Part shown: positions 58,934 through 61,941 of the stretch, one piece after another
Layout of the letters: every line of letters starts with the position of its first letter
Numbering within the stretch: position 1 is the stretch's first letter
Source: a virus
Lineage: Duplodnaviria > Caudoviricetes
Strand: one strand, 5' to 3'
IMG/VR virus record: IMGVR_UViG_3300022876_000002
DNA: 64,000 nucleotides
Notes under the pieces: generated by a model
Database searches by the model: none
Seen by the model: the letters and a program-made list of their open reading frames with translations, nothing else
What the model was told of the DNA's origin: nothing
Program-made: the position numbers and the translations under genes

Positions 58934-60124
58934 TTAACCAATCGGACTACCAGTGGCAGACTGCATGCCGTTTACTGGGGCCTCACCAGCTCTTATGATC
59001 AAATCACCTTTGGACTCAACGATGTATTCATTGGCTTCTTTGAAAGTGTTACCCAGATAGTAGAGACCAGTGCCGTTGTAGCCGATACCGTAGTACTGCA
59101 TTTCACACTGATCGCTAGACTCAGCAGAGATCATTGCTGTCAGGTGTTCTTGTGCGATAGCTGAACTAACGTTTTCAACATAGACGGGGTTGGCGTACTC
59201 ACTGAACTCGGCAATGAACTTGTCATCTACCAAGACAACCAACGCTGACAGGCCGTTGCTAAGCCACTTGCGGTGCGACAGGATGATTACTTTACCTGGG
59301 TAGCGATTACCAGTTTTGGTGATCTCTTCACGGATAAAGTTTTTGGTAGTTTTGCTGAAATTGCCGAAAACTGTGTTATAGTACTTGAGCTGATCCGGGT
59401 CATCCAGTGCGAAAGGGCGTTTGACACTAGGGATATCTTCTTCTGGCCCTGGGTCCCTTGCAGGCTTGGCATTAGCCTTAGCGTAGTTAGCTTCCAGCAT
59501 CACCAGTTTGTTTTCTGGGATCAACCCACCTTGGCGAAGCTCTTTGATCATTTCTACTGTGGCGTAAACGTTGTATTGCTGAATACGTTTGGCGGTCAAC
59601 GAGTAAGCGTCGAAGAAGGTACCATCCAGGTATGCACCAACGTTACCATGGAAGTTAGCCAGGATGGTACCGGAGTCGTACTCTTCTTCTGACTCTACAA
59701 CACCACCTGGGGCCAGGCCTGCTTTAGCCAATGCTTCGCGCAGGTTAGGGTTAGCACTGAACATAATCTCACGTGCCAATGCCGCAATGCGAACTGGATC
59801 CGCGCTGTCCAGCAATGCGGGCAAATCAACATGTACCGCACCTGGGTCGTCAGTGAGGGCCTCTTTGTAGAGACCACCCATACCAGGGTACTCGAGGTCT
59901 TTCTCCGTGATCTTGGAGATAGTGTCCCCGGAAGCATTCATGATGTAAACGTTGCCAGTGATCGGATAAGACCGATTCTTACCTGGCAGTGCGTGTTGGA
60001 TTACCAGCCCACGGTTACCGCCCGGTGGAGTACCTAAGTTGACTTTGATGTCAACCGGTTCTTCTACAACCAGCATGCGGAAACTCTTGTTGTCGCGGTC
60101 CATCATTTTGATAATGAGGTTCAT
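58934..60124 (-). CDS. Hypothetical protein with shared N-terminal module (array member 4)
   Basis: 396 aa containing YPITGNVYIMNASGDTISKI. Confidence 0.75.
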   Translation of the reverse strand: MNLIIKMMDRDNKSFRMLVVEEPVDIKVNLGTPPGGNRGLVIQHALPGKNRSYPITGNVYIMNASGDTISKITEKDLEYPGMGGLYKEALTDDPGAVHVDLPALLDSADPVRIAALAREIMFSANPNLREALAKAGLAPGGVVESEEEYDSGTILANFHGNVGAYLDGTFFDAYSLTAKRIQQYNVYATVEMIKELRQGGLIPENKLVMLEANYAKANAKPARDPGPEEDIPSVKRPFALDDPDQLKYYNTVFGNFSKTTKNFIREEITKTGNRYPGKVIILSHRKWLSNGLSALVVLVDDKFIAEFSEYANPVYVENVSSAIAQEHLTAMISAESSDQCEMQYYGIGYNGTGLYYLGNTFKEANEYIVESKGDLIIRAGEAPVNGMQSATGSPIG

Positions 60125-60233
60125 GTAAACTACTCGTATTAGTTAGTGGTTTGTCTTACTGGTATTACGTACGTGCTATGTTGCCTAAGGTCAGAGCCGC
60201 CCCTGACCTTAGTATTACTTTGCTCGGTAGAAA

Positions 60234-61076
60234 TTAACTAAAGGTAACCGGTCGGATATCAAAAACTTCATTATCCAAATTGACGGTAAAGGCTTGTTTG
60301 TTAAGAAGGCTGTCAACTCTCCAGCCTTTGTCTGGAATATACTCAAGCCCATGGGACTCTTTTTCTTTGGCCGAAAGTGTATCGACTGTACGGCACCCTA
60401 GTTCAGTAACTACGATATGCGGCTGAGATGCACACTCCATGATACCTAACGTTTTGTCGAAATGAGGATTTACATACAAAATCCATGGTCCATTAGGTGG
60501 CAAATCTATCATCCACTGGAACATTTGGGTAAATGGATCAACATGATCTGCGCTAATTAATTCGTTCAACTGATCAAGGCTGTTGCTAGGGCGGAATTGC
60601 AATTTACCAAGACCCAAGTAAAGAGTCGGTGAAGCCGCACGTAAATCTTTAGCACTATTCCAAACGGTAGCTGGATCACTCCCCTGGACACTCCCACCTG
60701 GATTCAATGGAGGGAACTGCTTAGGTATTTCGCTATGTTTATTCAATTCTTCCCAGTCAATAGGGCGGTCCCCGCCGAGTATTTCCCGGATAGGTTGTAA
60801 TACTGCTTCGGTCTGTTCTTCAATACGCACTGGAGCCATGAGCTTTTCATAGCTCACTTCACTTAACACCAACCCATCAGGGTTCATGATAGTGACGTCA
60901 CCAGTTACCGGAATAACTTCAGAGCGGAAGTCACCAAAACCCTCGACCACCACCAATGGGTTATTGGACTTGGTCGCAGCAAATACCGCCACACGGCCAG
61001 CATGTAGCACAGGGATCAAATGGAACCCGACTTTATCCGAGTGCATTACCTTGATAATAGTTACTGGTTTAATCAT
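60234..61076 (-). CDS. Hypothetical protein with shared N-terminal module (array member 3)
   Basis: 280 aa containing IPVTGDVTIMNPDGLVLSEV. Confidence 0.75.
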   Translation of the reverse strand: MIKPVTIIKVMHSDKVGFHLIPVLHAGRVAVFAATKSNNPLVVVEGFGDFRSEVIPVTGDVTIMNPDGLVLSEVSYEKLMAPVRIEEQTEAVLQPIREILGGDRPIDWEELNKHSEIPKQFPPLNPGGSVQGSDPATVWNSAKDLRAASPTLYLGLGKLQFRPSNSLDQLNELISADHVDPFTQMFQWMIDLPPNGPWILYVNPHFDKTLGIMECASQPHIVVTELGCRTVDTLSAKEKESHGLEYIPDKGWRVDSLLNKQAFTVNLDNEVFDIRPVTFS

Positions 61077-61690
61077 TACGCGGGTTCCCCTATCAATTTC
61101 TTAGCTTCTTCTTCAGACAAGTTAAATGTAAAACCGAAATTAGTTGCTACTGGTTCGCGAGTCTTTCTGTTCACCCCGATAAATGAGTAAGCTAACTCCG
61201 GAGTGGTTGGGTCGATAAAGATTTCGTGGTCATGGCACGATGCGTAGAAAGCCTGATCGGACCCTAGGAGCACTATTGGACTTTCTTCACCCATGTGCGG
61301 CCTGGGGATATATACCGAAATAGGGTTTCCGCAGTAGAGGGTGGCGCGGGTTCTTACTTTCCAGATGCCATTTGTAGAGACAGTCAGTCGTTTTTCCAAC
61401 AGCTCCATCCAGAACTCTTTGCTTCCTGGTGCGGTGGGAGTGGGAGGGTACACCAGATCGGAAAGTTTCACTAAATGGATCAAGGCACCTGTGTGAGACT
61501 TGATCTCTACGTCACCACGCAGTTGGTAAACGGCGGTATTTTCCTCCAACACCCCGTCTATTTCAACAACCCCTTTCTGGATAGTCAGGGTAGCGTCACC
61601 TCGGCCAAACTTCATGACCTCTTGACTACCCACTTGGAGGACAGTACCTACTGAACCATAGCTAGTAAACAACGTTACAATAAGACTCAT
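61076..61690 (-). CDS. Hypothetical protein with shared N-terminal module (array member 2)
   Basis: 204 aa containing YQLRGDVEIKSHTGALIHLV. Confidence 0.7.
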   Translation of the reverse strand: MSLIVTLFTSYGSVGTVLQVGSQEVMKFGRGDATLTIQKGVVEIDGVLEENTAVYQLRGDVEIKSHTGALIHLVKLSDLVYPPTPTAPGSKEFWMELLEKRLTVSTNGIWKVRTRATLYCGNPISVYIPRPHMGEESPIVLLGSDQAFYASCHDHEIFIDPTTPELAYSFIGVNRKTREPVATNFGFTFNLSEEEAKKLIGEPA

Positions 61691-61941
61691 GACGCGCTCT
61701 CTACACTATCGGCCGTGACAGTTTGGATTACTTCACCGTTTGCATTACAGATCTCCACTTCCCCATCAAAGCCGTAGGCGGTAATGCTGTTACTAGATCC
61801 ATTAACTGAAGGGATACGTACATGTGGATCGGAATTGGTGTACCGACCGAATTCAATGCGCTCGCCAACTTTAACGGTCAATACGTTTTTCACAACGCCT
61901 TTGCTGTTTTTAACGATTACCAACATTGCCAACTGACTCAT
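61687..61941 (-). CDS. Stand-alone copy of the shared module (array member 1)
   Basis: 84 aa containing YGFDGEVEICNANGEVIQTV; GGAG upstream. Confidence 0.75.
   Translation of the reverse strand: MSQLAMLVIVKNSKGVVKNVLTVKVGERIEFGRYTNSDPHVRIPSVNGSSNSITAYGFDGEVEICNANGEVIQTVTADSVESAS

Follow-up and report, generated by a model that had tools for sequence, protein, structure and literature searches.

A tandem gene array of nucleus-forming jumbo phages encodes a common N-terminal module with exchangeable C-terminal cassettes

A 64,000-nucleotide (nt) stretch of viral DNA (Duplodnaviria; Caudoviricetes; IMG/VR record IMGVR_UViG_3300022876_000002), hereafter the window, carries between positions 58,934 and 61,941 four tandem genes whose products share a homologous N-terminal module of about 80 amino acids (aa). 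Examination of this array revealed an unnamed protein family of nucleus-forming jumbo phages (Chimalliviridae-type), which is new and has no Pfam entry, and in which recombination among close relatives adds, removes and swaps the C-terminal cassettes. The four genes, each assigned to its own paralog group (A to D), are distributed as follows.

61687..61941, minus strand: P0001, group A, 84 aa, module only, from the open reading frame (ORF) and its translation, with seven strands and a short C-terminal helix in the AlphaFold model.
61076..61690, minus strand: P0002, group B, 204 aa, module at residues 1-82 (61445-61690) and a C-terminal part of ~120 aa.
60234..61076, minus strand: P0003, group C, 280 aa, module at residues 1-74/84, helix at 76-99, disordered linker at ~102-150, then cassette Y.
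60237-60608, minus strand: cassette Y of P0003 (residues 157-280), alpha+beta, from the AlphaFold model, alignment and motif scans.
58934..60124, minus strand: P0004, group D, 396 aa, module at residues 1-82 (59879-60124), D1 at 85-235 and D2 at 236-396.

The window originates from a nucleus-forming jumbo phage and contains a PhuZ tubulin gene (55850-56845, minus strand; phrog_4733, E-value (E) 2.5e-69). Along the minus strand, an HslV-like peptidase gene is followed by the four array genes, by a 2-kb RNA locus with tRNA-Leu and tRNA-Asn, and by PhuZ. Start and stop codons overlap at the P0001/P0002 and P0002/P0003 junctions, and a gap of 109 nt with a hairpin inside separates P0003 from P0004. 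The C-terminal extensions amount to 0, ~120, ~196 and ~314 aa from P0001 to P0004. The four proteins are soluble and mildly acidic (pI 5.0-5.4), and no further copy of the module was found in the other 60 kb of the window.

Homology of the module in all four proteins was established by profile comparison. BLASTP of the N-termini connected P0003 with P0004 (E 1e-5); it gave no alignment between P0001 and P0002 and just E 0.12 between P0002 and P0003, so that profiles are needed for these two links. Profile-profile comparison of the paralog groups, syntenic orthologues included, returned E of 3e-7 for A-B, 6e-11 for C-D and 3e-5 for A-C, and of 6e-4 and 3e-4 for A-D and B-D. A 46-module profile from which the tested paralog group had been removed recovered P0001 at 9.8e-13, P0002 at 2.1e-10, P0003 at 7.7e-14 and P0004 at 1.3e-18, these values being calculated for a database sized as the phage six-frame ORF set. 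The alignment covers ~80 residues, is nearly gap-free and keeps its hydrophobic positions in a conserved pattern; conservation is highest in the last hairpin, G-[DNE]-V-x-[IV]-x-N-xx-G.

The initial annotation had recognised the four genes from this motif, and its description is confirmed by the group-excluded profiles (E 1e-10 to 1e-18) at the coordinates given above, with the motif 20-mers lying at residues 56-75, 55-74, 55-74 and 53-72. Its further statements that the first gene is the module alone (84 aa, extension 0) and that the C-terminal parts are mutually unrelated hold as well, since hhalign among the four C-terminal parts of the window gave probabilities <20%, that is no detectable relation. 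The failed and marginal BLASTP pairs might suggest that the motif is coincidental and the four N-termini unrelated beta-rich segments, but this is refuted by the profile-profile and leave-one-group-out tests, significant for all four proteins, by a full-length alignment with few gaps, and by the equal strand order of two independent AlphaFold models, which together leave it virtually no credit.

The first of these models, P0001 computed with a 46-row family-wide alignment, reached a predicted local distance difference test score (pLDDT) of 86.9 and a predicted template-modelling (TM) score of 0.76, with seven strands and the short terminal helix. Full-length P0003, modelled with its own orthologues only as alignment (pLDDT 74.6), shows the same seven strands at the same positions, and the module is thus predicted, with confidence, to be a seven-strand beta sandwich. 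The two modelled N-termini, for which a failure to superpose had been named as the refuting outcome, agree in their strands, in the positions of these and in their structural matches, so that this outcome did not arise for them. Beyond the module, the P0003 model comprises a long helix (76-99), a disordered region (~102-150, pLDDT <50) and an alpha+beta domain (157-280, pLDDT 73-88).

A search of the P0001 model against predicted viral structures allowed the module to be matched to 201phi2-1 B3FK09 (TM-score normalised to the query 0.70), Goslar A0A482GHT7 (0.64), Erwinia phage MadMel (0.66) and Pseudomonas phage Phabio (0.68). The P0003 model matches the same viral entries with a root-mean-square deviation (rmsd) of 2.4-3.5 Å over 78-82 residues. 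Against the PDB all scores were below the useful level, so no fold is named for the module or the C-terminal domain: Foldseek gave a best E of 0.4, VIA-align a best Z of 4.1 for the module and of 4.8 for full-length P0003 (to 2r41_A, aligned with the C-terminal domain; rmsd 4.2 Å, 89 aligned), and the sequence profile a best E of 0.07, to TRAP. The similarity of cassette Y to RelE/ParE-type toxins (Z 3.0-3.4 to ParE, HigB2, YoeB and RelE) also lies below that level. Searches of the ESM Atlas by shape and by features produced nothing usable for the C-terminal parts and, otherwise, beta-sandwiches of a generic kind (TM up to 0.54). Pfam, PHROGs and NCBIfam gave only noise-level matches to the four window proteins, and no Pfam family was matched by the modules at E up to 1. 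The Pfam model of phiKZ-type inner-body/internal head proteins (PF12699), a model used without positive control, gave no match at E up to 1.

Turnover of the cassettes is apparent when the window is compared with its syntenic relatives. At the locus preceding the RNA locus and PhuZ, the following family genes are found.

Window: 84, 204, 280 and 396 aa.
Syntenic locus L007: 75, 84, 203, 308 and 490 aa.
Syntenic locus L003: 77, 88, 426 and 509 aa.
Syntenic locus L005: 87, 252 and 489 aa.
Syntenic locus L027: 667 aa, with a gene of 81 aa in front that goes undetected by the profile.

A near-identical relative from a soil run (X10) has 244 extra nt at the head of the array, with the joint at 61941/61945, the place where L007 has its 75-aa module-only gene. 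Group C proteins begin with the module and a helix, continue with a linker bearing the motif GG[AS][IV]QG-x-[ED]P-xx-[FW]N and end in cassette X or Y, in the two together, or in a variant X. P0006 corresponds to P0003 with a 110-aa insert, which is cassette X; P0008 and P0032 have cassette X and are devoid of the terminal cassette Y of P0003, and P0010 has the variant cassette. The relation between cassette X and its variant is clear (E 1e-40), and the sequence comparison suggests that Y is possibly related to X (E 1.7e-4). In group D, the terminal cassettes are repeats of one kind (E 3e-13); D1 of P0004 is conserved within the group, and its terminal D2 is common only to two other proteins. 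No relatives of the C-terminal part of P0002 were detected beyond its orthologues. A word-based search, whose negative is weak evidence of absence, found no stand-alone cassette Y (P0003 150-280) or D1 (P0004 85-235) among proteins of similar length.

The linker motif of group C lies at 60640-60700 of the window (P0003 residues ~127-140, peptide GGSVQGSDPATVWN), in a predicted disordered linker that is otherwise variable. It was observed at the same place in P0005-P0010, P0026, P0029, P0030, P0032 and P0056, as well as in two members of other subgroups, and might act as a docking peptide or mark a point of cleavage.

Between the window and L007, the HslV-like peptidase and PhuZ are 97% and 95% identical, against 86, 66, 69 and 37% for array groups A, B, C and D. 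Synonymous divergence (dS) is 0.24-0.30 in the flanks and 0.7 to >1.2 in the array, i.e. 3-4 times higher, and the array therefore contains older alleles imported by recombination. The ratio of nonsynonymous to synonymous divergence (dN/dS) is 0.10-0.25 over the array (0.10 for P0001 and ~0.23-0.25 for the cassettes), which shows that the array genes are under purifying selection and, therefore, functional. The array is thus a hotspot of older, mosaic sequence within a conserved backbone.

The range of the family was determined by an exhaustive HMMER search with the module profile against 1.84 billion representatives (clusters at 50% identity). Among the 54 matches at E up to 1e-3, ~45 are real, each being one full-length match, and the remainder are repeat proteins, matched many times over short segments. 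In all real matches the module begins at residue 1-7, and their total lengths are 77-667 aa. Members from cultured phages identified by the profile are 201phi2-1 gp34 (E 1.9e-25), RAY gp198 (1.8e-9) and Goslar gp144 (6.8e-8) and gp143 (1.2e-6), gp144 being confirmed as the same gene in both Goslar records. YerA41_079 gave a weaker match (E 2.3e-4 and 1.7e-6 in two profile searches) and is a probable member.

The proteins of 201phi2-1, Goslar and RAY, all annotated as hypothetical, share the N-terminal module of the window by profile and predicted structure, and the two-gene tandem of Goslar resembles the window array. They differ from the window in forming a separate subgroup, whose first hairpin has an insert of 7 residues (N-terminus of 201phi2-1 gp34: MYSVKIMSGQNLPDSDVGKGF), and in bearing other cassettes. 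These phages also have one or two copies of the family, in contrast to two to five in tandem in the ~240-kb soil lineage of the window and four in the window itself. No functional study of Goslar gp143/gp144, 201phi2-1 gp34 or RAY gp198 was found in the literature. A profile search of phiKZ and PhiPA3 returned nothing, an empty answer that is no evidence of absence in this search, and neither tblastn with P0004 and P0031 nor a search for near-identical DNA gave a match in the phage collection. The nearest phage record to the window (G001) has ~98% identity, and the related ~240-kb contigs originate from compost and soil samples; for PhuZ, the closest cultured relatives are Shewanella phage FishSpeaker and Erwinia phage RisingSun, with just 39-41% identity.

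Three further features adjoin or interrupt the array.

62008..62658, minus strand: HslV-like N-terminal nucleophile (Ntn) peptidase, upstream neighbour, 216 aa, beginning with MTT (phrog_1040, E 2e-30), listed as context and not as part of the array.
61974..62002, minus strand: perfect hairpin and subsequent TTTAT, between P0001 and the HslV-like gene, from sequence.
60185..60212, strand not assigned: GC-rich hairpin in the P0003/P0004 gap, from sequence and a terminator-like scan.

The MTT start of the peptidase is that expected of an N-terminal-threonine hydrolase. Scans of the locus for sigma-70 promoters and terminators gave no excess over shuffled background. In two relatives, the HslV-like frame is open for ~175 (L005 6501-7640, plus strand) and ~107 (L006 3362-4297, plus strand) extra codons 5' of the MTTIAVS start; these extensions have no Pfam match and may represent in-frame read-through of an inserted gene or a gene-calling artefact. 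On the minus strand at 62840-62960, 5' of the peptidase gene, a GC hairpin (AAAGGGGGCTGCGCCCCCTTT) precedes a highly AT-rich segment of ~70 nt; this arrangement is a candidate promoter region of the phage, which would head the operon. The divergent neighbour at 63178-63999 (plus strand) encodes a DUF7484 protein (PF24302, E 1.9e-75) whose position is kept in all syntenic relatives.

On the other side of the array, a family member stands directly upstream of tRNA genes in the window, in RAY (L014 4989-6886) and in YerA41 (L012 2992-3702), and the tRNA that follows is tRNA-Asn(gtt) in both RAY and the window. This tRNA-adjacent placing is a neighbourhood that recurs across distant phages. A relative assembled in run X10 is devoid of 279 nt of the RNA locus at 57534-57814, between tRNA-Asn and a tRNA-like gene.

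The locus is also present in soil metatranscriptome runs; in three of the four examined it occurs as 60-240-kb contigs of flat depth, perhaps DNA carry-over. Run X9 contains a 1764-nt contig that covers P0004 separately at a mean depth of 830, and pieces over P0001-P0003 at depths of 0.6-8, which is only a hint that P0004 may be transcribed alone because contig depths cannot rank genes. Short contigs of the same run over 58624-58907, just 3' of P0004, reach a mean depth of ~30,000, as compared with 830 for P0004 and 36 for PhuZ.

The closest described analogue of this build is DUF7941 (PF25613), to which Goslar gp22, gp23 and others belong (10.64898/2026.04.21.720040). Like the present family, DUF7941 is confined to nucleus-forming jumbo phages, has several paralogs per genome including module-only members, and places an N-terminal globular module before a disordered linker that is followed by nothing or by varied C-terminal domains. 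It is nevertheless another sequence family: its Pfam model detects Goslar gp22 (E 2.6e-52, 178.5 bits) and gp23 (7.3e-20, 72 bits), used as positive controls, and in the same library gives no match in the four window proteins, gp143, gp144, gp34 or gp198. In addition, DUF7941 proteins are abundant late virion proteins forming filaments, whereas the present family is trace-level or absent in virions and has one member reported as early.

Two other systems share the principle of a constant N-terminal part and varied bodies. The T4-type internal proteins IPI, IPII and IPIII, encoded by neighbouring genes, have a common capsid-targeting leader before unrelated, fast-changing bodies, and at least one of them, IPI*, acts against a host defence. 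Their leader is a cleaved peptide of ~10 residues directing packaging, in contrast to the shared part of the array, an 80-aa domain that is folded and for which nothing points to cleavage or packaging. In P22/Sf6-type tailspikes, a conserved N-terminal head-binding beta domain docks varied C-terminal bodies on one partner, a build comparable to that of the array. There is no sequence relation between the two, and the array has neither beta-helix bodies nor evidence of virion location. Superposition on the tailspike N-domain gave Z 3.9 for P0001 (rmsd 4.8 Å, 66 aligned) and Z 3.2 for P0003 (7.7 Å, 90 aligned), within search noise.

Taken as a description of the modular build, the initial annotation stands: a common N-terminal domain is joined, behind a predicted disordered linker, to separable and unrelated C-terminal cassettes that are inserted, deleted and exchanged. 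The docking, effector, substrate-binding, anti-defence or adaptor function that it attached to this build finds no support here. Our preferred but tentative reading is that the array encodes early, non-structural host-interaction proteins in which the module is a common contact or handle and the cassettes are variable host contacts. The proteins would be made early and would act in the infected cell and not as parts of the virion. The conserved module would serve as a common handle for one conserved partner, or would itself be a small binder or inhibitor, and the variable cassettes would engage variable, probably host, targets, so that the array would form a host-takeover or counter-defence toolkit. 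As to timing, Goslar gp144, itself uncharacterised, was reported together with ChmA, ChmC and gp214 among the early genes that rise on Rhc depletion (10.64898/2026.10.01.755736).

Several points weigh against this reading. Its early timing is inferred from that one preprint sentence about one homologue. Mass spectrometry of Goslar virions estimates 4.5-10.5 copies of gp143 and 1.1-2.6 copies of gp144 (10.64898/2026.04.21.720040), and YerA41_079, whose gene lies behind a predicted sigma-70 promoter and in front of tRNA genes, is annotated as 'structural protein'; a low-copy virion role therefore still has to be reckoned with. No known binding or enzymatic fold or family was matched by the cassettes. 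Taken with a dN/dS far below 1, the high divergence demonstrates allele exchange and is no proof of positive selection. Finally, the module-only proteins (P0001, groups A and E) show that the module acts without cargo, which fits an effector better than a handle.

This last point leads to the alternative, which we consider rather unlikely as a complete account, that the module itself is the effector, a small beta-protein that inhibits a single conserved factor of host or phage, much as T4 Dmd or small anti-CRISPR proteins do, and that the cassettes would be later add-ons with separate roles or none that is essential. The module may indeed be the active part because many family members consist of the module alone (77-91 aa), and such proteins occur in every array. 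P0001 is moreover the best-kept array member, with 86% identity to its L007 orthologue and a dN/dS of 0.10. The models bear a weak likeness to T4 Dmd (Z 3.6-3.7, rmsd 3.0 Å over 53-54 of 57 residues) and to AcrIF9 (Z 3.0), but these Z values are at noise level, and why a phage should keep one inhibitor in four or five divergent copies is not obvious. Nor are the cassettes junk, since they are under purifying selection.

It is unlikely that the family consists of low-copy virion or ejected proteins, with the module as an attachment or packaging handle, comparable to tailspike head-binding domains or to the DUF7941 fibre proteins of chimalliviruses, and the cassettes as host-recognition domains or injected cargo. 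Besides the YerA41 annotation and the Goslar copy numbers, 201phi2-1 gp34 adjoins tail tube and sheath genes, and both models weakly resemble P22/Sf6 tailspike N-terminal domains (Z 3.2-3.9, rmsd 4.8-7.7 Å, 66-90 residues). The tailspike scores are at noise level, however, and the 201phi2-1 record bears a mass-spectrometry note on the neighbouring gp28-32 and gp36 and none on gp34. The few-copy values of gp143 and gp144 may be carry-over because the same Goslar virion preparation also contained chimallin, ChmC and PhuZ (10.64898/2026.04.21.720040), and both proteins are outside the 28 modelled structural proteins and the abundant unmodelled ones. The naming of gp144 as an early gene, and cassettes none of which is like a carbohydrate-binding or fibre domain, also speak against a place in the virion.

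A role as protease adaptor is doubtful. In this scheme, the module would dock on the upstream HslV-like peptidase, or on a host AAA+ unfoldase serving it, and the cassettes would deliver host proteins for degradation; alternatively, the four proteins would be substrates or regulators of the peptidase. The peptidase gene is directly adjacent on the same strand in the window and in syntenic L003, L005 and L007, it keeps its MTT start, and a module with a flexible linker and a variable cassette may be likened to tethering adaptors. On the other hand, a search for HslV-like genes at E up to 0.01 found none in four phages that have family members (201phi2-1, Goslar, RAY and YerA41), and in the more distant L027 the array is preceded by a gene other than an HslV-like one. 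Between the peptidase gene and the array lie a strong hairpin and an indel site, and peptidase and array do not co-vary, because the former is 97% and the latter 37-86% conserved. The idea of an adaptor for the HslV-like peptidase is thereby weakened.

A more general form, to which we likewise give little probability, is that the module is a universal tether taking interchangeable target-binding cassettes to one machine of the infected cell. Candidates for this machine are the nuclear shell, the ribosome, and a protease or unfoldase, which in this lineage would be the HslV-like peptidase of the phage itself. In a variant of this tether, the linker motif of one paralog would dock on the module of another and give mixed head-to-tail assemblies, as proposed for DUF7941 proteins. 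If the tether proved true, jumbo phages would possess a set of adaptors, re-programmable through recombination, with which host factors, defence proteins included, could be removed or relocated, and the cassettes would constitute a catalogue of target-binding domains.

Nucleus-forming jumbo phages serve as a main model in phage cell biology and in work on how phages escape DNA-targeting immunity, and most of their early genes are unexplained. The family described here has a confident predicted fold, has no counterpart in Pfam and is common to the model phages 201phi2-1, Goslar and RAY. Its recombination hotspot of two to five genes with swappable cassettes, seen in one soil lineage, follows a pattern usual for genes facing a variable host and, as Goslar and 201phi2-1 are genetically tractable, gp143, gp144 and gp34 are concrete candidates for its study.

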